Shown here: piece after piece, positions 38,846 to 63,527 of the stretch
Position numbering within the stretch: the stretch's first letter is position 1
Layout: the number at the start of each line of letters is the position of its first letter
NCBI RefSeq assembly: GCF_039982535.1
Contig: NZ_JBDWYG010000039.1
Location: 164,743 to 228,742, forward strand
Direction of reading: 5' to 3'
From: Aliiglaciecola sp.
GTDB lineage: Bacteria; Pseudomonadota; Gammaproteobacteria; Enterobacterales; Alteromonadaceae
DNA: 64,000 bases
The notes under the pieces: model-generated
Database searches by the model: none
Seen by the model: only the letters and a program-made list of their open reading frames with translations
Told to the model about the DNA's origin: nothing
Position numbers and translations under genes: made by a program

Positions 38846-40138
38846 TTAACTAATTGGTAATGACACTCTGGCTACTAAGCCGCCTTGGGAATGGTTACTC
38901 AGTTCGATTTTACCTTTATGAAGGCTGACAATTCGTTTGATGATGGCTAAGCCGAGTCCTGAACCACCACTACCTCTGGCTTTATCACCTTGGGTAAATG
39001 GCTGAAACAAGTCTTCAATATTTTCTGTGGGGATGCCAGGGCCGTAATCTCGGACTTCAAAATACACCTGTTTATTACGCTTATCATGATAGCTAGTAAT
39101 CAGGATGTTTTCACTGCCATAACGAAAGGCATTTTCAATGAGGTTATCTAACACTCGTTTGATTGCAATCCGTCTTATCATCACCTTAGGTAGTTCAGTT
39201 AATTGCGTATCGATGTGGTAATTTTCTTGAATATTACGAGCATGCACAACATCTTCAATCAACTCGTTCAAAGACAACATCTCACGACGCTCTCGGGTAT
39301 CTTGACGCACATAATGAATAAACTGATCGATAATGTCGTTCATGTCTTCAATGTCGTGGACGATTCCATCTTTTATCCATAGCTGTTCGTCGGGCAGCAT
39401 TTCTGTTGCCAATCGTATGCGCGTTAAAGGGGTGCGCAAATCATGGGAAATGCCCGCAGTTAATAGCGCGCGGTCATCTTCTAACTGCTTAATACCCTTC
39501 GACATTTGATTAAACGCGCTGGTGACCGCAATTAACTCACTTGCCCCTTCTTCTTCTAATGGTGCCGGGACCTTTCCCTTAGCTACTTCTAGCGCTGCCA
39601 TTTGTAAGGCGTGAATGGGTTTGTTTAAGCGTCGCACAAAAATCCATCCGCCAGCGACACTCAAAATACCGATGACGATCAAATAAATGGTAAGGGGAGA
39701 GATATCGCCTTCACTAAAGCTTGCCATGGGAATGGATATCCACACGTTTGGATCTTGTGGCGGGTTTACCCAAATTAAGAAAGGTTCTGAGGCTGAGATC
39801 CTAACGTCTGCTTCTCCACCGAGTAAATCGGAAATCTGACGAGAGAAAAATTGGTAATAAATAGCCTGCTGCAATCCACTTTCCACAGCTTGTTTTTCGC
39901 TGTATATGCGAATATTTGTAGCATCAAAAATGTGACTTTGGGTTTGCGGATTGAGGTAATCGACCTCATCCAGAAACACCATGTTAATTTGCTTGGCGAT
40001 TAATGAATTTATCTGTTGATAATTAGGCCGGATAAAATAATAAGTGACTGATAGATAGGACACCACTTGGTTAATCAGCAGCAATACACCAATTAATAAG
40101 ACGGTTTGTCCAAATGCACTTTTAGGAAAGATTCTCAC
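38846..40138 (-). CDS. envZ: Osmolarity sensor histidine kinase
   Basis: [43 protein letters not shown]. Confidence 0.94.
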
Positions 40139-40177
40139 CAGTTTTGATTCAACCTAACTAACTTGGGGTAAACACAT

Positions 40178-40900
40178 TTATTGCGCTTCGCCATCGGGTA
40201 CAAATACATATCCTAATCCCCAAACAGTTTGAATATAACGGGGATTGGCAGGATCGACTTCAAGCATCCTACGTAAACGCGATACTTGAACATCAATGCT
40301 ACGCTCTAATGCACTGTAATCACGGCCTCTGGCCAAGTTCATTAGTTTGTCTCTTGATAACGGCTCTCTAGGGTGGGTTACTAAGGATTTTAACACCGCA
40401 AACTCGCCACTGGTTAAGGTAAGGGCTTCCCCGTCTGCAAACATTTCGCGGGTGGCAAGGTTCAATTTATACTTACCAAATTCCACAATCTGCATTTCTT
40501 GCGAGGGCGCACCTGGGGCTTCGTTGGTTTTACGACGTAGTACGGCTTTAGCTCGGGCCAGTAGTTCTCTAGGGTTAAAGGGTTTAGGCAGGTAGTCATC
40601 AGCGCCCATTTCTAAACCAATGATGCGGTCTACTTCATCACCTTTAGCGGTCAACATTATAATTGGAATTTCATTTTCTTTTTGGCGTAGACGTCGACAG
40701 ATTGAGAGGCCATCTTCACCTGGCAACATTAAATCCAGTACTAACAAATGAAAGTTCTCGCGTTCTAATAAACGATCCATTTGCTCAGAGTTAGCAGCTG
40801 AACGAACTTGATAGCCCTGTTCTACTAAGTAGCGTTCTAGCAAGCTACGTAGGCGCATATCATCATCAACAACCAATACTTTCTGTGTTTCTTGTCCCAT
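40178..40900 (-). CDS. ompR: Response regulator OmpR
   Basis: KVLVVDDDMRLRSLLERYL, DLMLPGEDGLSICRRLR, RYIQTVWGLGYVFVPDG; start at MGQETQK. Confidence 0.96.
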   Translation of the reverse strand: MGQETQKVLVVDDDMRLRSLLERYLVEQGYQVRSAANSEQMDRLLERENFHLLVLDLMLPGEDGLSICRRLRQKENEIPIIMLTAKGDEVDRIIGLEMGADDYLPKPFNPRELLARAKAVLRRKTNEAPGAPSQEMQIVEFGKYKLNLATREMFADGEALTLTSGEFAVLKSLVTHPREPLSRDKLMNLARGRDYSALERSIDVQVSRLRRMLEVDPANPRYIQTVWGLGYVFVPDGEAQ

Positions 40901-41047
40901 GTCGACCCTCAAAAGGAAATACCCGTTAATCACACCACTATAAATGAATACTAGGGAATTCAAAAGATTAGCTAAGTAACAATGTTATGTGGAGTGTTAC
41001 AAATTGTTTGTGAGAAGCCGTATAAACAACATTTAATAAAAACCTTG

Positions 41048-54195: not shown

Positions 54196-54223
54196 TTGAC
54201 ACAACCTTAAAGTAAGGTATGCT
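54196..54223 (+). promoter_or_regulatory. Sigma70 promoter of the cold-shock gene
   Basis: TTGACA-16 bp-TATGCT, implying a 5' UTR of about 140 nt. Confidence 0.65.
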
Positions 54224-54368
54224 TCAAGCAGCTAAGAAAACCTCGTTAAAGATCTACATGTTCGTTGTTATATCGTTGTTCTTCGTCCTGTCGTTTTTAA
54301 GTTCGGTCTCTTTTTATGCTAAACCGCCAATTTTGGCACCCAATTTAATTTTTACAGGAAGATATAAT

Positions 54369-54578
54369 ATGTCTGATAAAGTAGTAGGAACTGTTAAGTG
54401 GTTCAACGAAGATAAAGGTTTTGGTTTCATCGAGCAGCAAGGCGGCCCTGATGTTTTCGCTCATTTCCGTTCAATCGTTGGTGACGGCTTCAAGACTCTT
54501 AAAGAAGGTCAAAAAGTTGAATTCACTATCGGCCAAGGCCAAAAAGGTCCTCAAGCTGAGAACATTCAAGTTATCTAA
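54369..54578 (+). CDS. Cold-shock protein (CspA family)
   Basis: [15 protein letters not shown] (RNP1), VFAHF (RNP2); start MSDK at 54369 with ACAGGAAG RBS; ORF-track N-extension is spurious. Confidence 0.95.
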
Positions 54579-54681: not shown

Positions 54682-55590
54682 TTAACGGTTTTCTTTAACC
54701 GGTACAAATGGGCTAATTCGCTGCCACACTTCCTCTGGTTCTAAGCGTGACTTACTGCCCACGACACAAAATAACCCTGGGCAGTCTTTAGAAAAACTCT
54801 TTTGCGTATCCCAAGTTTCATAGGGGTGGGAGTCGTGTATCAACAATAGTTGAGGGTGAGTTTGAGTGCCTGCCGTGATGTGAAAGTCATCGAGGTTTCG
54901 TTTTTTCATGGCGCATAAATAATAAAGAGAATACTCCGTCCATTTAAGCATCAAGAATCGTGAAATCCGCCAATTTCTTGGATCTTTAGGGTTATGTAAC
55001 GAACAGACGGCTTTTGCCCAATCCTTTTTCCAAAGAGTGCTTAACTCCTCCGTTAACTGTTTAGCCAACTTAGTGGATAATATTGCTGGAGTGACATGCA
55101 TTCCTTTTGATGTGTCTCCCACATTTGCCGACATTTTTAACAGTCGAGCAGATGACTTCCACCATTTAGGGTGAAAACTGCGGGGTTCGTATTGCAACAG
55201 TGCTTTACCTTGGTCAATTAGCTTTTCTATGGACAAGGGTTTTAAACAAATCACATCGGCATCAAAGGTAATATAAAACTCATCTGTAAATTGGCTGTGT
55301 GCGGCTATTTTTACAATTTGTTGTTTCCGCCAGCCGCGCATGTGTTCATGTTGGCTTAATTCTGGAACCAAGTCTTCTTCCGACATAACCACTGGATTAA
55401 ACTGTGACCAGCGCTGCACTTTTTCAGTGACTATCTGTACTTCGTCTGGTGGCGTCACAATCAAAAATTTTGAGAATAAACCGGGTTCACAGAATGCATC
55501 TAAGGTTTTGAATAGAATTTCAGTTCTACCTAAGTCGTCTACATCATAACTACCCCTAACACTCAAAGGTAAAATTGCACCTATTGTCAT
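54682..55590 (-). CDS. DUF6492-like, glycosyltransferase-like protein
   Basis: GWRKQQIVKI and YITFDADV (DxD); no signal peptide. Confidence 0.6.
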   Translation of the reverse strand: MTIGAILPLSVRGSYDVDDLGRTEILFKTLDAFCEPGLFSKFLIVTPPDEVQIVTEKVQRWSQFNPVVMSEEDLVPELSQHEHMRGWRKQQIVKIAAHSQFTDEFYITFDADVICLKPLSIEKLIDQGKALLQYEPRSFHPKWWKSSARLLKMSANVGDTSKGMHVTPAILSTKLAKQLTEELSTLWKKDWAKAVCSLHNPKDPRNWRISRFLMLKWTEYSLYYLCAMKKRNLDDFHITAGTQTHPQLLLIHDSHPYETWDTQKSFSKDCPGLFCVVGSKSRLEPEEVWQRISPFVPVKENR

Positions 55591-55775: not shown

Positions 55776-56678
55776 CTACCAAAAACACCAGTGTTTACAG
55801 TCTTGTTGCTGAAGGAATAACTCGGCGTCTTTACCTTGCAATAATGCCAAGGTTGCCAGCAAGCCACTTTGAATGCATTGCGGGGCTGCCACTGTCACCG
55901 AGCGTGGTGCCTGTTGTATGGGGTAGCCAGTTTTAGGGTTTAAAACATGGCCATATCGCAAGCCATCTTTTAATAGATAGCGGTTTGCATCACCGCTTGT
56001 GGCAAGTCCACCGGTGGCAATATTTACCATGGCTAAGCCCTTAGAAAGATTACTTGGGTCTTCAATACCCACTTGCCAATAAGGATGGTTTTTGCGGGCT
56101 TGTGTTACTTGTATATCACCACCGAAGTTAACTAAAACCGATACATTTGGTGCTAATTGCTGACAAGCTTTAGCAACACAATCAACCGCATATTCCTTAC
56201 CAATACCGCCAAAGTCCAATTCAAAACCTGTGGGTAAGGTGATTGAGTTGGCGGTAAATGATACCTGTTGCCAACCAATAAAAGGCAGCAATGCGGTTAT
56301 TTGTGGGTGTGTTGGGATCCTGTCAGAACCATCAAATTTCCAAACTTTTCTTAATACCCCAGAGGTGATATCAAATAATCCATCACTAATTTGATAACAA
56401 GTATCAGCGAACGTCAGCAGTTTTGCAGTTTCCGCATCAATAGTGACAGCTTGATTGTTGCTCTGATTTATTTCGAACATCAAATTGTTGTGCTGATAAC
56501 GGCTGTATTTGTTCTCGATGCGTTTGCATTCTAGGTAGGCGACTTGTGTAAGCTCTTTTGCGAGTTCGCTATCCCCACTATCCACTAAAATCTCACAGGG
56601 GCTCGCCATCGCAGAAAAGCGACCACAAATATGGTCGCTACGCTTTTCTATGGACAAAGGCAATTCAGAGCTTTGCAT
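55776..56678 (-). CDS. apbE: FAD:protein FMN transferase (ApbE family)
   Basis: FDITSG, LDFGGIGKEYAVD, VNFGGD, LATSGD, YGHVLNPKTG, SVTV. Confidence 0.92.
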   Translation of the reverse strand: MQSSELPLSIEKRSDHICGRFSAMASPCEILVDSGDSELAKELTQVAYLECKRIENKYSRYQHNNLMFEINQSNNQAVTIDAETAKLLTFADTCYQISDGLFDITSGVLRKVWKFDGSDRIPTHPQITALLPFIGWQQVSFTANSITLPTGFELDFGGIGKEYAVDCVAKACQQLAPNVSVLVNFGGDIQVTQARKNHPYWQVGIEDPSNLSKGLAMVNIATGGLATSGDANRYLLKDGLRYGHVLNPKTGYPIQQAPRSVTVAAPQCIQSGLLATLALLQGKDAELFLQQQDCKHWCFW

Positions 56679-56702
56679 ATATTGTTATACCCTAACAAGG
56701 GG

Positions 56703-57995
56703 CTAAAAACTGTAGCTTACCTGTGCTATCACCGCTTTTAAAGAAGGATATAAATCTTCGTCTGCTAATGTCCCTGGTTGTTCGAATCCGGCATTGTCTG
56801 GGGTTTGTTGATAATATTCCAAGCGAAATGCTAACTCGTTACCGTTTTCCAATTGCATACCGTATTTTAGCCCTAGGGTAATTGCTGTCATTTTTCCTAA
56901 CCGGTAGTCAGCACTGGCATGCTCAGGAAGTGCGGTTCCTTGAGACAAAAATGGATTGTAAAACTCTGCTTCATTTTGTTGGTAATAACGAATATGCGGT
57001 TGTATGTAGCTGGTTTCCGATAGGTTATATCGAAAACGAGAGTCAATCGTATGAGAGTCTATATCCCAATCATCCGTAGCAAAACGATAGGAAAAATCTA
57101 CTACACCTTGATCAAGGGCATACTTGGTTTGCCAATACATGCTGTGTTTGGTTCGTTCTGTGGGGCGAGATTCATAGACCACATCTTGGGTTAAACCTTG
57201 CTGATCCACAACACTAAGCACTTTGTAGGGGTCATTGTGATAACCATCCGACATGGACAAACTATAGTTAAACTGCATTAACATGCGACGATTAATCACT
57301 TGGGTGACACCCAACAATAAATCTACCGTATCTTTTTGTTCACTGCCTTGTAGACGAGTGGCATCAAAGGCTTGTTGATAAGCTTCTGAACTGTCGAACT
57401 GCCCGTTATCAACTACCATGCTAGAAAGATCTACGGGGCGACCTCCCACGGGATCTATACTATCAAACGCATAGGAAATGCCCGCCGACAGGGTGGTATT
57501 TCTCTGATTAAGATCCATATCCAGTGAGCCATTACCCACAATGGATAAATAGTCGTATTCTTTGGAAGCTTGTAAACCACCACTAATTCGGTAATTTTCA
57601 CCGATAGGCTGTGTCCATTGTCCACTGGCTTGTACACGGGTATCGTGAAATGTGTCATCTAGCGGTGTTTCACCTGCTTCAACGGTATAGGTTTCATTAC
57701 CTGAAGGACGAGTAAATGTTTGCACACCAGATTGGGCAACCGCGCCTGAGGCAGAAGCTCCGGTGAGTGTATCGATCACCAGTTTGCCATTAAAATAATG
57801 TTCATCGCCGAAGTCTTTGTTGGCATTAAATACCCCTTCAACTAGTTGTACCCGATCTGTTTCACCGTAATACAAAATAGCAGTATCAAACTTCCATTCT
57901 TCGCTGTTGTCTTCAGCTTGGACAGATGTGCCTAACAATGCGCATGAAGCTGCGGCAAGAGTAGCACTGACGTTTTTAGTTTGTTTTAGTTGCAT
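56703..57995 (-). CDS. DUF3570-like outer-membrane beta-barrel protein
   Basis: Signal peptide, DTLTGAS motif, YRFATDDWDIDSHT, SADYRLG, C-terminal aromatic strand QVSYSF; overlaps the DUF4266 stop. Confidence 0.8.
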   Translation of the reverse strand: MQLKQTKNVSATLAAASCALLGTSVQAEDNSEEWKFDTAILYYGETDRVQLVEGVFNANKDFGDEHYFNGKLVIDTLTGASASGAVAQSGVQTFTRPSGNETYTVEAGETPLDDTFHDTRVQASGQWTQPIGENYRISGGLQASKEYDYLSIVGNGSLDMDLNQRNTTLSAGISYAFDSIDPVGGRPVDLSSMVVDNGQFDSSEAYQQAFDATRLQGSEQKDTVDLLLGVTQVINRRMLMQFNYSLSMSDGYHNDPYKVLSVVDQQGLTQDVVYESRPTERTKHSMYWQTKYALDQGVVDFSYRFATDDWDIDSHTIDSRFRYNLSETSYIQPHIRYYQQNEAEFYNPFLSQGTALPEHASADYRLGKMTAITLGLKYGMQLENGNELAFRLEYYQQTPDNAGFEQPGTLADEDLYPSLKAVIAQVSYSF

Positions 57996-58210
57996 CCACA
58001 ACCTCCGCCTGCAAATGAACGACCACCACTTGTGGCTTCTTTACTAAAATAAATGTGATCATCCAAGCCAATGTCTACCCCTTCAGAATCAAGGGCCATT
58101 TCATCCTTAGCGAGTAAATCACGCTCCCAGGGTTGCACACCTAAATTTGCACAGCCTGCAAGTTGCATCACGGCCATAATGGTAATAATAACTATGGTTT
58201 TTCGTTTCAT
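57986..58210 (-). CDS. DUF4266-like small lipoprotein
   Basis: Lipobox LAGC, VQPWERDLLA, HIYFSKEA, C-terminal GGGCGCN. Confidence 0.85.
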   Translation of the reverse strand: MKRKTIVIITIMAVMQLAGCANLGVQPWERDLLAKDEMALDSEGVDIGLDDHIYFSKEATSGGRSFAGGGCGCN

Positions 58211-58223
58211 TTTCTCGGCTCTC

Positions 58224-58679
58224 CTATTGTTTTAGTAGCGCGACGATTTCTTGTTCATAAGATGCGGATTTATCTAAATGAAATCCTTTGTGAGCGACCA
58301 CAAGTTCACCTTGTTTGTTGATCAAGTAACTGGTCGGCATACCTGGAATTTTGTATTGGCTGGCTAAACTGCCTTGGGGATCGTAGGCAATATTGAATTG
58401 CGCAGGGTATTTGCGTAAGAATTTTTGGGCTAATTTGGCATCGGTATCCAAATTTACAGCCAACACCACCAATCCCTCAGAGGCGTATTTATTGGTAATT
58501 TCATTCATCCAAGGAAAGGACTTTCGGCAGGGTTTACACCAGGAGGCCCAGAAATCTAAATATACTACTTTGCCTTTGTAATCACTTAACTGAATGTCTT
58601 GCAATCGAAAGTCAGGCGCAGGTAAAGCACTAGATGGTAAGTGCACTAGTAACAGTAGGGTTAACAGTAAAAGACGCAT
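58224..58679 (-). CDS. TlpA family thiol-disulfide oxidoreductase, exported
   Basis: Signal peptide, LDFWASWCKPC, cis-Pro GMPTSY. Confidence 0.92.
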   Translation of the reverse strand: MRLLLLTLLLLVHLPSSALPAPDFRLQDIQLSDYKGKVVYLDFWASWCKPCRKSFPWMNEITNKYASEGLVVLAVNLDTDAKLAQKFLRKYPAQFNIAYDPQGSLASQYKIPGMPTSYLINKQGELVVAHKGFHLDKSASYEQEIVALLKQ

Positions 58680-58709
58680 AAAATACTTACTCTAAACAAC
58701 AATGCTTAT

Positions 58710-58742
58710 AGAGTAAGTTATCAACCTTAAGGGAATCTTAAG
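58710..58742 (-). promoter_or_regulatory. QseB/PmrA-type direct-repeat box and -10 for the tlpA operon
   Basis: - strand CTTAAG-ATTCC-CTTAAG-GTTGATAACT-TACTCT. Confidence 0.7.
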
Positions 58743-58797
58743 CTAAATGAATGAGAATTATATTTTTTACTGAGTGGCTGGTTTTACGGTATGAATA

Positions 58798-59511
58798 TTA
58801 AAATTCGTACTCAAGAACAAAGCGCAAAGTATGATCTTTATTGTCGCCATTCAAGCCAGAGATAAAACCTAATTCCCATTTTAATTGTTTTTGGCCTTGG
58901 TAACGTTGAATCCCCATAAATGCTGGACCAATTCCGACGAACTTTTCTCCCGTGTAGATTTCCACTGAAGGTTGTAACCATGGGTGCCAACGATATCTGT
59001 ATTTGAGTCTGAATTGGGGAATAACCTCGCTTTCAGTGTCAATGTCTCTATCGCTTCCCCAGGTATAAGTCAGTAAAAAGTTAGTGGTTAAACTGGTTTG
59101 CCCAAATTCTTTTTCAATCAAGATGCCAGATGTGGCTTCCCAAAGATCTTTGCTATGGGCTTTTTCAACTTCAAACAACGCGCCCCAATCAGCCCAATAT
59201 TGCCCTTGTTCTGTGAGCATCCAGCGAGCCTCGACTTCATAGGAAGCTAAACCAAAATCATCGTTTTCATCTCTGGCGCCCACTAAATAAAACTCTAACA
59301 TCAAATGCTCTGAAACTGCTTTTCCAAAAGCAAAACGTTGGGTCAGCAGATTACCATCATCATTTTGGCGAGAAGCAAATCGCCATTCCACTTCCCGTTC
59401 ATTGGGTAAAACATAGGGGTGGTAGACTTTATCTACTGAGCCTTCATCGGCGAAGGCTACCGGGCAGAGCATTATGTTTACGAGTAAACTTAAGAAACTG
59501 AAAAACCTCAT
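58798..59511 (-). CDS. Uncharacterised exported protein, predicted small beta-barrel
   Basis: Signal peptide, DKVYHPYV, alternating amphipathic strands, C-terminal LEYEF. Confidence 0.7.
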   Translation of the reverse strand: MRFFSFLSLLVNIMLCPVAFADEGSVDKVYHPYVLPNEREVEWRFASRQNDDGNLLTQRFAFGKAVSEHLMLEFYLVGARDENDDFGLASYEVEARWMLTEQGQYWADWGALFEVEKAHSKDLWEATSGILIEKEFGQTSLTTNFLLTYTWGSDRDIDTESEVIPQFRLKYRYRWHPWLQPSVEIYTGEKFVGIGPAFMGIQRYQGQKQLKWELGFISGLNGDNKDHTLRFVLEYEF

Positions 59512-60266
59512 AGGTTTGGCTCCTTATTTACTTTTTTAGTTGAGTTGCTGAAACGCCTTAGCAAAACAGGCAGTATTAACGCGACTAAGTAGATCAAAAT
59601 ATATAATCCTGTGGGAGATGACTCATAACCTATTAATGTGGCAAGAAACTGACCTATTTCATTTTCATCTGAAATGAATTGTTTGCTACTCCAAATTTGT
59701 TGTGAAGTGACTAAATCTGTTTGTTGCAGCAGGTAGGCAATGTGGGAAAACTGACCCACAACAAAGACTAAAAACAGATAGCGCGCTACCTTCACTTTTT
59801 GTAGCGGTTTTAATAGCAATACCAGCAATGTTGCAATGCTGGTACAGATACCAACCCCTAAAATTAACCCTAAAAATAGCGAATGACTCTGCTCATTCAC
59901 ACGCCAGAAACTGACATAAAACAGCAGTAAGTTACTGGCATTAAGAATAATGATACAAGTGACAAACACAGTGGCTAAAAGCCGCCCTGTGAAATTGTAC
60001 CTGAGTTGATGATTCACGAAAAAGGCACCGGCAATAAGGTAACCGATGATCAGCAACAGGATTTTAAGAAACTCAAACCCCAAACCATCGGCGAATTGGG
60101 AAATATAACCGATGTTATTGAACACCAGTAAACAAACAATCGTTCCGCAGCCAATACCCAGCGGTAACCAGTGTCGCCAATTGGGTATCAACACTATTAA
60201 AATGGCTATGGCCCAAAATATCGGCAAAGCATCTTTTAGGAACAGTACCACTGTACTACTTAGCAT
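59508..60266 (-). CDS. FTR1/FtrC-like permease (degenerate)
   Basis: About seven TMs, GLILGVGIC, GQFLATLIGYESSP; follows the cupredoxin; canonical RExxE motifs absent; start at MLSSTVV. Confidence 0.68.
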   Translation of the reverse strand: MLSSTVVLFLKDALPIFWAIAILIVLIPNWRHWLPLGIGCGTIVCLLVFNNIGYISQFADGLGFEFLKILLLIIGYLIAGAFFVNHQLRYNFTGRLLATVFVTCIIILNASNLLLFYVSFWRVNEQSHSLFLGLILGVGICTSIATLLVLLLKPLQKVKVARYLFLVFVVGQFSHIAYLLQQTDLVTSQQIWSSKQFISDENEIGQFLATLIGYESSPTGLYILIYLVALILPVLLRRFSNSTKKVNKEPNL

Positions 60267-60600
60267 TTTGACGCTCCTCAACGGGTACCACGTTAACGAA
60301 GCCAATGGCTGTATTTGGATGATACTCGCCAAAATAACGATACCTTCCTGCATCTAAAGGACCTACATAGATACTCGACCGGCTTTTGGCAAATACGACT
60401 TTTTCTCTATTGAGGTCAAAACTATCAATTTCTTCAGGGGTGTCATCCAGATTGATAAAGGTGATTTTTACTTTTTTGTGCTGGGGAATATCAACTTCTG
60501 GTGGGTAAAACAAATGGTTCCGAATGGTGATAGTAATTTCGTCGATAGCACAGGCTTTAAATGACAGGGCAAGTAACATTAGCATCATGAATTTTTGCAT
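60256..60600 (-). CDS. FtrB/EfeO-like cupredoxin
   Basis: Signal peptide; FYPPEVDIP, EEIDSFDLNREK, YFGEYH; no Cys in the mature C-terminal loop; start at MQKFM. Confidence 0.82.
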   Translation of the reverse strand: MQKFMMLMLLALSFKACAIDEITITIRNHLFYPPEVDIPQHKKVKITFINLDDTPEEIDSFDLNREKVVFAKSRSSIYVGPLDAGRYRYFGEYHPNTAIGFVNVVPVEERQNAK

Positions 60601-60632
60601 GATGTTTTCAAGTACTTTTCTGCGCACGTTAC

Positions 60633-61931
60633 TCATGCCGATTTAAGCTCAACAAGCACACTCAAACCACCTAAGTCTGATTTACCTAGTGTGAGTTTGC
60701 CATCGTGCATAGCGACAATTTGCTCGACTATGGATAGACCCAATCCACTGCCTTCAATTTTACTCTTTTGATGACTTTGACCTCGATAAAAGCGCACTGT
60801 GGATTTATGTTGTTCGTGCTCTGGAATTCCTGGGCCAGAATCATCAACGCGAAGGCGTAAACATCCGTCATCAAGGGTTAAGTTTATGCGTATATCGCTG
60901 TTCTCTGGTGTGTATTTATTGGCATTGCTAATGAGGTTTTGTAGCAAGGTATATAGGGCAAATTCATTGCCTTTAAATTCACAGGACTCACCATTGAGTT
61001 CGATGTTTTGATTCTTTTTATCAATATTCACATAGCTATCGGAAATAACTTTTTGGGCTATTTTGTAGGGGTCACAAATATCAAAGTTAGCTGAGATAAT
61101 TTCAGGGTTAGTACGACTGAGTAGCAAAATTTGATTAACCACGTGGATCATTCTATCTGTGTCTTGTTGTAGCTGTTGAATCTCCTCGTATTCGCAGCCT
61201 TGGCTCTGCTGTAAATTATGCAAATTTATTTTCAGGACACTCAGGGGAGTTCTTAGTTCATGGGCGGCATGGCTGGCGAATTGTTTTTCCCGCTCGAAGG
61301 CCGAATCCAACCGGTTCAACAAGCTATTCAGAGTACTCACCGTGGGCAACAACTCCTCGGGGGTTCGTGACAAAGCAATAGCAGAAAAATCATTTTCTCG
61401 GCGCGTAGACAATTGACTGGTGAGTTCCCTAAGGGGAGCTAAACCGTAGGTAACTAGCAGGAATATGGCTAAGGCTAAAACGGGAATGGCGAGAAAAAAT
61501 GGTGTCATTGCCGATATCATCATTTCTTCGGTTAGCTCAAATCTGGTTTTTAGTGGTTGAGCGACAAAAACCCAAACAGAGGTTTGTTGATTGAAGCTGG
61601 CATAAACCCGCCACCGTTGAGCGTTAAAGTTCTGGTCAGAATACCCTACTTCGAAGGGAGCGATGGCAGTTAAAGGCACATTGCTGGTGCGTAAAACCAA
61701 ATCTTCATCAGACCAACTTTGAATGGCTAAATCTTCATTTGAAGCGGCAATAGTCTCGCTAATTTGCGTGGGTAAGTTAGTCATGCTTTGGGCGAGAGTT
61801 TTCAATTCAGCATCGAATAACACCGAAGACATCTGCATTCCTGAACGATACCCTTGTAGTGCCGCAATAAAACTAATCAGCGCAATAGCACTGATAAGCA
61901 GTAAGGTCAGGTATTTACGAATTGAATCCAT
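60633..61931 (-). CDS. QseC/PmrB-like sensor histidine kinase
   Basis: Two TMs, LFDAEL periplasmic motif, HAMP, FASHAAHELRTPL, NANKY, GSGLGLSI. Confidence 0.92.
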   Translation of the reverse strand: MDSIRKYLTLLLISAIALISFIAALQGYRSGMQMSSVLFDAELKTLAQSMTNLPTQISETIAASNEDLAIQSWSDEDLVLRTSNVPLTAIAPFEVGYSDQNFNAQRWRVYASFNQQTSVWVFVAQPLKTRFELTEEMMISAMTPFFLAIPVLALAIFLLVTYGLAPLRELTSQLSTRRENDFSAIALSRTPEELLPTVSTLNSLLNRLDSAFEREKQFASHAAHELRTPLSVLKINLHNLQQSQGCEYEEIQQLQQDTDRMIHVVNQILLLSRTNPEIISANFDICDPYKIAQKVISDSYVNIDKKNQNIELNGESCEFKGNEFALYTLLQNLISNANKYTPENSDIRINLTLDDGCLRLRVDDSGPGIPEHEQHKSTVRFYRGQSHQKSKIEGSGLGLSIVEQIVAMHDGKLTLGKSDLGGLSVLVELKSA

Positions 61932-62603
61932 TTATCCAGGGTAAGCTCGCTGATTAATGCTATAGCCTACACCACGAACCGTTTTAATAAACTCGTTAGG
62001 TAATTTTTTACGTAAATTATGAATATGAACTTCAATTGTATTGCTTGCCACTTCATCGCCCCATTCGTAAAGCTTAGATTCCAATTGTTGTTTAGATTGA
62101 ATGCGCCCAAGGTTTTCCATTAATGACTTCAGCAGGGTGAACTCACGACGAGAAGTTTCTACCGGCTGATCATTTATAATCAGTAAGTGATGAGTAATAT
62201 CGAGACTCACGGGACCGCAGGATACTAGGGATTGTTGCGAAGTACCTAAGCGTCTTTCCATTACCCGTAAGCGGGCTAGCAACTCTGACATTTCAAATGG
62301 TTTAGGTAAATAATCATCAGCGCCTTTATCTAAACCTTGTATTTTATCGGAGGTTGAGTCCCGTGCGGTTAATATTAATGTTGGTATGTTGTTTTTCTGC
62401 TTGCGGATTTTATCGAGTAAGGTTAATCCGTCCATATCGGGCAACCCAAGGTCAAGGATCATTAAATTACAGTCATCTGAGGCCAGTGCAGCTATGGCAT
62501 CTTTGCCGTTAAAAACACAATTAACCGCATAACCCTGCTTGCGCAATGATTTGCTTAAGGCTTCAGATAAAGCGAGATCGTCCTCGACTAATAAAATACG
62601 CAT
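61932..62603 (-). CDS. QseB/PmrA-like response regulator
   Basis: MRILLVEDD, LDLGLPDMDG, SNTIEVHIHNLRKKL, IKTVRGVGY; start at 62603. Confidence 0.93.
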   Translation of the reverse strand: MRILLVEDDLALSEALSKSLRKQGYAVNCVFNGKDAIAALASDDCNLMILDLGLPDMDGLTLLDKIRKQKNNIPTLILTARDSTSDKIQGLDKGADDYLPKPFEMSELLARLRVMERRLGTSQQSLVSCGPVSLDITHHLLIINDQPVETSRREFTLLKSLMENLGRIQSKQQLESKLYEWGDEVASNTIEVHIHNLRKKLPNEFIKTVRGVGYSINQRAYPG

Positions 62604-62693
62604 AATAGTGGGTTCTTTTTCGTTTGCAGCAATGGCGTAGCATATTGGCAATAGTTTAATTGAATGACAATTTGTATTGTGATCGTCCCTATC

Positions 62694-62726
62694 ATTATAA
62701 GAAGTTTACCTTAAAGTAATCTTAAC
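62694..62726 (-). promoter_or_regulatory. QseB/PmrA-type direct-repeat box and -10 for the two-component operon
   Basis: - strand GTTAAG-ATTAC-TTTAAG-GTAAACTTCT-TATAAT; same geometry as 58710-58742. Confidence 0.7.
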
Positions 62727-62762: not shown

Positions 62763-62790
62763 AAAAATGGGCACCGAAGTGCCCATTTTT
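62763..62790. terminator. Intrinsic terminator after ompW
   Basis: AAAAATGGGCAC-CGAA-GTGCCCATTTTT. Confidence 0.88.
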
Positions 62791-62807
62791 ATAACGTTTT
62801 AGTCCGT

Positions 62808-63458
62808 TTAGAATTTATAACCAACAGTGAGTGAATAAACAAATGGGTCAATATCTACATCAACAGTTCCAGCTGAACCACCATTAGTAAATGTCGCTTC
62901 AGTGCTGATATCAATGTAACGTGCAGAAGCATTAACAAACCAATTGTCATCCAACATATAATCAAAACCAATTTGAGCAGATAAACCAACAGAGTCATCT
63001 AACTCCAAATCATCAAAGCCTGCTTCTTGATTGGCAGCAGTGAATTCTTCACTGAAGAAAATAGTGTAGTTAATACCTAAACCAACATAGGGTTGAAACG
63101 CACTATCGGCTTCTAAAAAGTGATAATTAGCTGAAATAGTTGGTGGTAAATGTTTTGTAGAACCTAAGGCACCAACGGTGTTTAAACCAATATCATGTTC
63201 AAAAGGGGTTGCTGCCAATACTTCAATTGCCCAATTAGGTGACAAGAAATACGCAAAGTTTAATCCCAATTGAGAGTTGTTATCGACATTTACACCAACA
63301 CCAACATCTGCACCGCCAATAAAAACATTACTGCTTGATTCGTCTGGGGCTACGGTAGTGACACCTGCACGTAGGATCATATCGCCAGTTGTATATGCTT
63401 GTGCTTGAGTGGCGCTAAGTGCGACTGCTACCGCTAGGTAAACTGCTAATTTTTTCAT
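62808..63458 (-). CDS. ompW: Outer membrane protein OmpW
   Basis: GDMILRAG, IEVLAATPFEH, KHLPPT, PYVGLGINYTIFF, IDPFVYSLTVGYKF; start at MKKLAV. Confidence 0.95.
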   Translation of the reverse strand: MKKLAVYLAVAVALSATQAQAYTTGDMILRAGVTTVAPDESSSNVFIGGADVGVGVNVDNNSQLGLNFAYFLSPNWAIEVLAATPFEHDIGLNTVGALGSTKHLPPTISANYHFLEADSAFQPYVGLGINYTIFFSEEFTAANQEAGFDDLELDDSVGLSAQIGFDYMLDDNWFVNASARYIDISTEATFTNGGSAGTVDVDIDPFVYSLTVGYKF

Positions 63459-63527
63459 GTGTTTCTCCATCGATATAATGTGTTTAAATTTGATGGAGAA
63501 AGCTTACCCAATTGAATTTTTCTGATA

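Follow-up and report, generated by a model that had tools for sequence, protein, structure and literature searches.

The 64,000-nucleotide stretch of Aliiglaciecola sp. DNA analysed here (positions 164,743 to 228,742 of contig NZ_JBDWYG010000039.1, hereafter the window) contains a cluster of nine minus-strand genes that encode a two-component regulator, two Ftr-derived proteins, two predicted outer membrane beta-barrels, and the remaining components of a protein flavinylation module. We tentatively propose, with a confidence that falls a little short of even, that the nine genes constitute two transcription units of an envelope regulon similar to PmrAB/BqsRS, in which a redox relay is the effector and the Ftr-derived pair acts as receptor or handler of the signal. 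Judging from the protein families involved, this signal is most probably periplasmic iron (Fe2+ and/or Fe3+). The proposal draws on gene content, motifs, the conservation of a promoter box, recurrent linkage, and predicted folds, read together with published work on the BqsR box, on the flavinylation of DUF3570 proteins by ApbE, and on the roles of individual FtrB residues. Each part of the cluster comes from a known family. Our full-text literature searches found no description of this operon type, of an FTR1 branch without REXXE motifs, or of a regulator for DUF3570 clusters. The initial annotation of this DNA had put the cluster forward as an undescribed system, which holds for the combination of genes, while the mechanism is what we infer below.

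Two operons with one promoter box

The nine open reading frames (ORFs), as listed for the window, occupy 55776-62651 and are as tightly packed as first annotated. The response regulator (RR) and histidine kinase (HK) genes directly abut, the HK and cupredoxin genes overlap by 4 nt, as do the FTR1-like and barrel genes, and the overlaps are 11 nt between the cupredoxin and FTR1-like genes and 10-16 nt between the DUF4266 and DUF3570 genes. The single real gap in the cluster, of 118 nt, lies between the barrel gene and tlpA. We refer to the genes for the RR, the HK, the FtrB-type cupredoxin, the FTR1 homologue and the 12-strand barrel as operon 1, and to those for TlpA, DUF4266, DUF3570 and ApbE as operon 2. 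The genes and their promoter boxes are as follows.

62710..62725, minus strand: regulator box 1, TTAAGattactTTAAG, in the operon 1 promoter, 10 nt upstream of TATAAT at 62694-62699
61932..62603, minus strand: OmpR-family RR, PmrA/QseB/BqsR-like (Response_reg 4.6e-29, Trans_reg_C 1.6e-21)
60633..61931, minus strand: sensor HK with two transmembrane segments (HisKA, HATPase_c and 2CSK_N in Pfam; transmembrane segments by hydropathy)
60256..60636, minus strand: periplasmic FtrB/EfeO-type (Cup-II) cupredoxin with a signal peptide (Cupredoxin_1 7.8e-22)
59508..60266, minus strand: FTR1/FtrC-homologous inner membrane protein with ~7 transmembrane segments (profile-profile comparison; hydropathy)
58798..59511, minus strand: predicted 12-strand outer membrane beta-barrel with a signal peptide and C-terminal YEF (AlphaFold2, pLDDT 86.8)
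58726..58741, minus strand: regulator box 2, TTAAGattcccTTAAG, in the operon 2 promoter, 15 nt upstream of TATAAG at 58705-58710
58224..58679, minus strand: periplasmic TlpA/ResA-like thiol:disulfide oxidoreductase with a signal peptide (AhpC-TSA/Redoxin/Thioredoxin in Pfam)
57986..58210, minus strand: DUF4266 lipoprotein (Pfam DUF4266 2.3e-21; lipobox LAGC with alanine at +2)
56703..57995, minus strand: DUF3570 outer membrane beta-barrel, predicted ApbE substrate, C-terminal SYSF (Pfam 7.5e-170)
55776..56678, minus strand: ApbE, FAD:protein FMN transferase (Pfam ApbE 8e-62)

Pfam and NCBIfam together assigned a family to seven of the nine gene products. The two exceptions, a membrane protein (59508-60266) and a secreted protein (58798-59511), matched neither database and were identified by profile-profile comparison and AlphaFold2 modelling, respectively, and the resulting gene content is the one originally listed. 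The reported absence of P19 and of a polyferredoxin was likewise reproduced by Pfam and NCBIfam for the cluster and its immediate flanks; further, no P19 or ferredoxin-like gene is present in the cluster or in any of ~50 related loci. The public Aliiglaciecola sp. SL4 shows 99% protein-level identity to the window.

Both operons are preceded by the same direct repeat, TTAAG-N6-TTAAG, which occurs with zero mismatches at two sites only in the 64-kb window, one in each promoter, in agreement with the shared regulator box described at the outset. The PmrA box has the same geometry. The BqsR box has been defined experimentally as TTAAG-N6-TTAAG (PMC4358008, PMC13522522), and in that system BqsS senses Fe2+ via an RExxE motif and the BqsR regulon takes in arnB, pmrAB, and feo (PMC4358008, PMC13522522). 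Both boxes in the window have this PmrA/BqsR-type geometry and appear to overlap the -35 region, and are predicted to be regulator sites. Exact boxes are strongly over-represented in the related loci: 899 kb of non-redundant sequence contains 58 of them, whereas base composition predicts 3.9. In related loci, an equivalent box stands ahead of the RR gene, or ahead of the TPR gene where one comes first. Upstream sequence was available for 18 TlpA genes, and each of them has an exact box on its own strand no more than 65 nt from the ORF boundary, among them the tlpA of an operon 2 cluster of Paraglaciecola sp. 20A4 (L040) that is not linked to operon 1. Control by Fur was considered and rejected: a 13/19 Fur-box match over the operon 1 -10 element is not kept, the 9-12/19 matches of relatives are at the level of noise, and no conserved Fur box precedes the RR gene in the window and the related loci compared. 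The combination of a PmrA/BqsR-type activator box with the lack of a conserved Fur box is a better fit to induction by the presence of metal than to an uptake system induced by starvation.

The RR likely starts at MRILLVEDD, with the ORF running on to 62651, and its best NCBIfam model is PmrA (238 bits; equivalog cut-off 330), with 196 bits against QseB (cut-off 345). The HK has a 2CSK_N periplasmic domain of ~115 aa, and scores 188 bits against QseC (cut-off 475) and 184 bits against PmrB (cut-off 314). Just ahead of its second transmembrane segment is an R-F-E-L-x-E motif (residues 130-135, 61527-61544) conserved in 36 orthologues. PmrAB (BasRS) of Enterobacteriaceae and BqsRS (CarRS) of Pseudomonas aeruginosa similarly combine an OmpR-family RR and a kinase with two transmembrane segments, with TTAAG-N6-TTAAG over the -35 region (BqsR box, PMC4358008). 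Their operons are autoregulated, as is predicted for operon 1, and their kinases have an ExxE-type acidic motif at the periplasmic face, to which the R-F-E-L-x-E motif may correspond. The arnC/arnT-like targets seen in relatives of the window are a further likeness, and accessory membrane proteins encoded in the same operon are comparable to bqsP/bqsQ of Pseudomonas. Unlike these systems, the HK studied here has a ~115-aa 2CSK_N domain rather than the short PmrB loop, its operon contains FtrB-like, FTR1-like, and barrel genes that are found in no described PmrAB/BqsRS operon, and a DUF3570 cluster is among the predicted targets.

We recovered 33 species-level genome loci, 14 metagenome loci, and several contigs via exact-protein look-up (L-numbers in the text); as the genome scan started from 13 sequences and used a narrow peptide pattern, the taxonomic spread is a lower bound. 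The five-gene order RR-HK-cupredoxin-FTR1-like-barrel is invariant in every locus recovered (~50). Of the 33 genome loci, 10 have the DUF3570 module within 10 kb of operon 1, as do many other loci, and the arrangement of the two modules varies: tandem, with operon 2 after operon 1, in Aliiglaciecola and also on a metagenome contig whose flanks are wholly different; convergent in Paraglaciecola, Psychrosphaera, and Saliniradius; divergent around a single shared box in L046; fused into a nine-gene operon with tlpA first, the ApbE stop abutting the RR start, and a single box in L053, L055, L057, and L043; and unlinked in L040. That the two modules recur together across genomes through such rearrangement, fused nine-gene operons included, is strong evidence of a functional tie between them. 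Chance adjacency was rejected, given five architectures with different flanks and the box before TlpA in 18/18 cases.

Operon 1 also occurs alone at its locus, e.g., in Colwellia and some Paraglaciecola. Further, the box precedes a GT2 (ArnC-like)-DedA/VTT-PMT_2 (ArnT-like) trio in Alteromonas, Fluctibacter, and Bowmanella (L005, L014, L028, L029, L033), which is located right after operon 1 in Alteromonas (A. mediterranea L005, 8729-12005) and within 10 kb in Fluctibacter and Bowmanella. Such an arn-like trio is a hallmark of PmrA-type output. As operon 1 is often present without operon 2 nearby, and as the same box is found on arn-like genes, operon 2 is better seen as a target module than as an obligate set of subunits. 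Of the joint nine-gene system that was first envisaged, the functional link between the modules is retained, while the obligate set is not, operon 1 being invariant and also found without operon 2 in its vicinity.

Several other genes accompany the two modules in relatives. Often the box and the RR gene are separated by a gene for a secreted, TPR-like protein of ~224 aa, which extends the operon to six genes (L016, 6913-7587; also L026, L030, L031, L036, L037, L023, L028, L029, L033, L051, L056, L060); this protein has no homologue in the 64-kb window at E<1e-5. A third exact box in Alteromonas L005 (12060-16671) precedes T_hemolysin-family, AMP-binding, haem-oxygenase-like, and short-chain dehydrogenase genes, in a cluster that also has a TPR-like gene homologous to the pre-RR TPR gene of other loci. 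In Paraglaciecola, a second, unrelated HK (567 aa, HAMP)-RR pair is encoded just upstream of tlpA on the same strand (L018, 14960-17474; equivalents in L017, L021, L026, L027, L030, L031, L036), with the box sitting between its RR gene and tlpA. In Saliniradius amylolyticus (L041, 12228-12767), an MntP manganese-exporter family gene is directly upstream of the RR gene.

The Ftr-derived pair and the 12-strand barrel

The cupredoxin matches the crystal structure of Brucella FtrB (PDB 8vuk, E 2.5e-10). In FtrB, E84, E86, and E93 bind Fe, whereas D118 and H121 are proposed Cu2+ ligands needed for ferroxidase activity (PMC11966278). The equivalents of E84/E86/E93 form an acidic triad (E/D/E) within PEEIDSFDLNREK (60400-60438), and the corresponding pattern EE[IF]DSF.LNREK is invariant in an alignment of 56 orthologues. 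The D118 equivalent is G in 56/56 orthologues, and the H121 equivalent is H in the window cupredoxin and N in about half of the 56. With an invariant triad and Cu ligands that are not conserved, the sequence suggests a protein that binds iron in the periplasm and not a ferroxidase dependent on copper. A cupredoxin known from the literature on Alteromonas was also considered, and is a different, merR-copA-linked gene.

The FTR1-like protein has no Pfam match even at E<=10. A word-indexed search with it returned six close homologues and a weak match to a true FTR1 (P0007, phmmer E 1e-5), and an exhaustive profile search returned 728 representative clusters, among which ~100 of the best 150 start MLINTVILFLRDALP and have neither REXXE motif; true FTR1 proteins, carrying REVLE and REGSE, appear only lower in the ranked list. 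When 40 members of the family were compared with 19 true FTR1s by profile-profile alignment, the match extended over the full length (probability 100%, E 1e-50, 245 columns), with REVLE aligned to RDALP of the family in the first transmembrane segment and REGSE aligned to NGSNF in the fourth. The window protein has KDALP (60222-60236) and NASNL (59928-59942) in place of the REXXE motifs. It retains the periplasmic loops DG.G.E and D.SE.G..L..L.GYEA.P that are common to the REXXE-less and true FTR1 groups, as DGLGFE (60072-60089) and SDENEIG...GYESSP (59652-59672), and hydropathy predicts 6-7 transmembrane segments. PDB sequence searches with the FTR1-like family and with a true FTR1 gave no match. 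The full-length profile match and the aligned motif losses together identify a genuine FTR1 homologue without the defining translocation motifs. The "FTR1-like permease" of the initial annotation is therefore correct as to FTR1 homology and not as to canonical permease motifs, and its "Ftr-like metal module" does not stand as a canonical Ftr system, since both REXXE motifs are lost and the cupredoxin Cu ligands are not conserved. Membership in FtrABCD or EfeUOB was rejected for the same loss of REXXE and for the absence of P19 and FtrD.

A sister operon on a metagenome contig (L060, 470-4345; 52% GC) has the order TPR-RR-HK-cupredoxin-FTR1-barrel and encodes the closest relative with both REXXE motifs intact (P0195; REVLE, REGSE). 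The presence of an intact permease in the same architecture suggests that this operon type probably began with a working permease, and that the motifs went missing in the Alteromonadales-type branch. With more than 100 representative clusters in which both REXXE motifs are lost and the periplasmic loops conserved, the REXXE-less branch of the FTR1 family is large and previously unnamed; it always sits inside a sensor operon, has an intact-motif sister, and offers a natural experiment on a permease changing its role.

FtrABCD (Bordetella, Brucella, Burkholderia), EfeUOB, and yeast Fet3-Ftr1 share with operon 1 a Cup-II cupredoxin (FtrB, 8vuk), the iron site of which is E/D/E in operon 1, and an FTR1-family protein of seven transmembrane segments with conserved DG.G.E and D.SE.G periplasmic loops; in FtrABCD, as here, the cupredoxin and permease genes are translationally coupled. 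Unlike FtrABCD, operon 1 is without P19/FtrA, FtrD, both REXXE motifs, and conserved Cu ligands, includes a dedicated outer membrane barrel, and is a two-component operon instead of being regulated by Fur or acid. A second comparison, offered as an analogy for the working mode and not as a claim of membership, is with transporter-like co-sensors ("transceptors") such as UhpC/UhpB, DctA/DcuS, BceAB/BceS, and yeast Snf3/Rgt2. Here too, a transporter homologue is adjacent to a kinase, its transport motifs are lost or down-graded, and its ligand-facing parts are kept. We know of no FTR1-family example of a transceptor.

The secreted protein of operon 1 has no Pfam match at E<=10, no NCBIfam match, and no PDB sequence match, and 845 homologues were found in Alteromonadaceae; exact-protein look-up of the window barrel and of P0032 returned no record. 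AlphaFold2 gave a confident 12-strand beta-barrel, in accordance with the barrel initially predicted. Alternate strand residues are E/R/K/H, which may point to a charged, cation-friendly lumen. The best Foldseek matches are FapF, a COG4313 channel, PcoB, Tsx, and KdgM, with no specific family emerging. PcoB (7pge) ranks 22nd among the structural matches (TM-score 0.44, E 8.8e-5). Some database names of homologues read "copper resistance protein", and a CopB/PcoB identity (PF05275) was tried and rejected, as there is no such Pfam match at E<=10 and FapF and COG4313 channels match better.

The flavinylation operon and a possible electron relay

More than 500 DUF3570/DUF4266/ApbE gene clusters were reported in 2021 as flavinylated systems without a function (Méheust et al. 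2021, PMC8238504), in line with the apbE-DUF3570-DUF4266-thioredoxin clusters mentioned in the initial annotation. DUF3570 is flavinylated by its cognate ApbE at a [S/T]GA[S/T] motif, as demonstrated experimentally for the Chlorobium luteolum pair only. In the clusters, DUF4266 has a CXC at its C-terminus and is joined by a thioredoxin-like protein, often also by DsbD; 316 clusters have no linked DsbD (PMC8238504). Their function was called "uncertain", with a hint from 25 clusters containing VIT1 iron transporters (PMC8238504).

Operon 2 closely follows this pattern, and its signal peptides, lipobox, CxxC, CGC, and [S/T]GA[S/T] motif are conserved in orthologues. TlpA carries the active site WCKPC (58527-58541). 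The DUF4266 lipoprotein, predicted from its lipobox to be sorted to the outer membrane, has a Gly-rich C-terminal tail ending in GGGCGCN (CGC at 57992-58000), an ending that is invariant in 12 aligned orthologues. In DUF3570, the flavinylation motif TGASASGAV (57738-57764), conserved in 12 orthologues, consists of TGAS followed by SGAV (TGAV in relatives), the second of which departs from [S/T]GA[S/T] at its last position. The AlphaFold2 model of DUF3570 (pLDDT 74.9) is a large barrel of ~18 strands. In it, the motif opens a long loop that follows strand 3 and is modelled with low confidence; given the usual topology of outer membrane proteins, this loop would be external or folded into the lumen. 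Foldseek matched the model to generic large outer membrane barrels, with MtrB second (TM-score 0.42) and TM-scores of 0.4-0.5 overall, and a PDB sequence search gave no match. Neither in the window nor in 11 orthologous loci (L001, L002, L008, L017, L018, L021, L026, L027, L030, L031, L036) does ApbE have a signal peptide, lipobox, or hydrophobic segment, according to N-terminal alignment and hydropathy. As DUF3570 is secreted, an ApbE without an export signal implies that flavinylation takes place before Sec export, or that another ApbE acts.

No DsbD homologue is encoded in the 64-kb window. In Psychrosphaera (L008, 11637-13442), the DUF3570 operon has DsbD as its fifth gene, and in 11 Paraglaciecola loci (L015-L018, L021, L026, L027, L030, L031, L036, L037) DsbD is a divergent neighbour of operon 1, ~1-1.5 kb upstream in most of them and ~4 kb in L026. 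This linkage in relatives supports a reductive feed into TlpA. The claim that the relay replaces FtrD finds no support, as FtrD is an inner membrane polyferredoxin, whereas the relay is periplasmic and outer membrane-located and apparently fed by DsbD where the latter is linked.

Compared with the DsbD-type DUF3570 flavinylation system (Méheust et al. 2021, eLife, PMC8238504), operon 2 has the same set of ApbE, DUF3570, DUF4266, and thioredoxin-like genes, the [S/T]GA[S/T] motif and the C-terminal CXC, the link to DsbD (linked in Psychrosphaera, nearby in Paraglaciecola), and an uncharacterised function with hints towards iron. It differs in its PmrA/BqsR-type box and its link to an Ftr-derived sensor operon, neither of which we found in the main text of PMC8238504, as well as in an ApbE without an export signal and the lack of DsbD in the window. 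An activator box together with a dedicated sensor provides the first concrete experimental handle on the function of the DUF3570 module.

The conjectural parts of our proposal concern the signal, the co-receptor role, the path and direction of electrons, and the substrate. Operon 1 would be an autoregulated sensing unit, in which the RR and HK are co-transcribed with the cupredoxin, the FTR1-like protein, and the barrel. Metal would be admitted by the 12-strand, charge-lined outer membrane channel and bound at the outer face of the inner membrane by the FtrB-like/FTR1-like pair, which may serve mainly as a kinase co-receptor or a periplasmic iron handler rather than as a ferroxidase-dependent permease. 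We favour this role because the periplasm-facing parts are conserved, while the translocation and catalytic residues are gone. Once phosphorylated, the regulator would bind TTAAG-N6-TTAAG over the -35 regions of both promoters, its own and that of operon 2.

The effector would be operon 2, whose products would relay electrons from thiols to a flavin in the outer membrane. As suggested by motifs, localisation signals, and analogy, electrons might pass from DsbD (encoded elsewhere, and linked in relatives) to the CxxC of TlpA, from TlpA to DUF4266, whose flexible C-terminal CGC tail could act as a shuttle disulfide, and from this CGC to the FMN that ApbE would attach covalently to a loop of the DUF3570 barrel. 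The thiol oxidase Erv2p has a comparable arrangement, with a Cys-Gly-Cys on a flexible C-terminal tail that shuttles next to a flavin. The probable task of the relay would be redox reactions under metal stress, at the outer membrane or across it, and the reaction we prefer is the reduction of surface-bound or extracellular Fe(III).

It is conceivable, though rather improbable in our estimate, that the parts form a full sense-and-respond circuit, in which a heme-free flavin conduit across the outer membrane reduces Fe(III), the resulting Fe(II) enters through the channel, and the FtrB/FtrC co-receptor reads it. In such a circuit, the relay inside the DUF3570 plug-and-barrel would be a haem-free counterpart of MtrAB, and the decayed FtrB/FtrC pair would give the FTR1 family its first transceptor. 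Porin-cytochrome conduits (MtrAB) and plug-and-barrel pairs (LptDE) are similar in that a large outer membrane barrel is encoded together with a small partner, periplasmic or a lipoprotein, that carries a redox group. Unlike MtrAB, the system described here has a predicted covalent FMN and disulfides and no haems, and the TM-scores of 0.4-0.5 represent generic barrel similarity. If true, an outer membrane flavin conduit would add a new class to the devices for extracellular electron transfer. The lineages in question (Alteromonas, Paraglaciecola, Colwellia) are abundant marine bacteria associated with particles and algae, and the redox chemistry of iron at their cell surface matters ecologically.

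Weighing the explanations

A number of observations weigh against the sensing-and-relay proposal. The RR and HK score below the NCBIfam equivalog cut-offs for PmrA, PmrB, and QseC, and iron as the signal is inferred from family resemblance only. The HK motif has the form R-x-E-x-x-E, with a spacing unlike RExxE, and is maybe a general feature of 2CSK_N. The conserved R/K-D...P in the first transmembrane segment and the polar N-x-x-N in the fourth suggest that the FTR1-like protein may still transport some ion, the sister operon L060 speaks for descent from a transporter and perhaps for some remaining transport, and the 12-strand barrel could serve export rather than import. A signal-less ApbE is awkward for an extracytosolic flavoprotein. 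Operon 2 is not near operon 1 in about two thirds of the species-level loci, so that a physical partnership of the two modules is at most putative, and the second HK-RR pair could be the true regulator of tlpA in Paraglaciecola.

Among the alternatives, reductive iron uptake survives best, although we consider it unlikely. In this explanation, which is essentially that of the initial annotation, the relay would reduce extracellular or chelated Fe(III), the barrel would admit Fe(II), the cupredoxin would bind and oxidise it, and the FTR1-like protein would import it, as a bacterial counterpart of yeast Fre-Fet3-Ftr1 with the relay in place of P19/FtrD. The cupredoxin and permease are indeed homologous to FtrB and FTR1, and the sister operon L060 has an intact REXXE permease, but both REXXE motifs are lost throughout the clade with the DUF3570 link. 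Similarly, the Fe-binding triad is invariant, but the Cu ligands on which ferroxidase activity depends are not. Genes for FMN-binding or thioredoxin-like proteins recur in P19/FTR1 clusters (PMC8238504) and fused nine-gene operons exist, yet P19 is absent here and operon 1 is often without operon 2 nearby. BqsR, with the same box, controls Fe2+ acquisition via feo (PMC13522522), whereas no conserved Fur box was found and the regulon includes arn-like lipid A genes, which are typical of metal excess or cationic stress and not of starvation.

A general envelope-stress regulon, in which the cue is cationic peptides, low Mg2+ or pH, or oxidative thiol stress instead of metal, is in our view less probable still. 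The Ftr-derived proteins would then be structural or signalling components, and the DUF3570 module would serve to repair envelope proteins or lipids after oxidation, much as TlpA/DsbD-fed pathways repair oxidised periplasmic proteins. PmrAB and PhoPQ-type systems do answer several envelope cues, arnT-like targets are present, and an outer membrane protein gene inside a two-component operon is comparable to oprH-phoPQ. However, the strict conservation of the iron triad and of the FTR1 periplasmic loops is hard to explain without a metal ligand, and both the conserved ExxE-type motif of the HK and the link of DUF3570 clusters elsewhere to VIT1 speak for metal. Of the genes named in this comparison, oprH is mentioned in PMC4358008.

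Homeostasis of, or resistance to, copper or another non-iron metal is the least probable of the three. In this case the metal sensed would be Cu, Zn, or Al. Copper in the periplasm would be dealt with by the cupredoxin together with a PcoB-like barrel, and the relay would either maintain envelope cysteines in reduced form or alter the redox state of copper. In its favour are the cupredoxin fold, the "copper resistance protein" names and the PcoB match of the barrel (7pge, E 8.8e-5), the HK score of 178.6 bits against the heavy-metal sensor family TIGR01386, and the known part of TlpA-type proteins in copper-site maturation. Against it are the lack of a type-1 copper site, Cup-II Cu ligands that are not conserved beside an invariant iron triad, the missing CopB/PcoB Pfam match of the barrel at E<=10 and its better FapF and COG4313 matches, the position of the HK score below the family cut-off, and the absence of CopA, CusCBA, and multicopper oxidase genes from all of the ~50 loci.

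The cluster is flanked by OmpW and DUF6492 genes. The OmpW gene (62808-63470, minus strand; NCBIfam 3.4e-76) has a clean intrinsic terminator at 62775-62800, GGGCACttcgGTGCCC followed by a T-run; it lies just upstream of box 1 and marks the upstream boundary of operon 1. On the other side, the DUF6492 gene (54682-55590, minus strand; Pfam 3e-101) follows ApbE after a 185-nt gap with no box; its position is kept in Aliiglaciecola L001 and L007, it is absent from the metagenome relative L002, and it is probably outside the system. The window also contains a cold-shock-domain gene on the plus strand (54219-54578), a 119-aa ORF with a probable internal start that would leave a long 5' leader, and another RR/HK pair (38846-40963, minus strand), which has distant similarity to that of operon 1 (107 and 55 bits).

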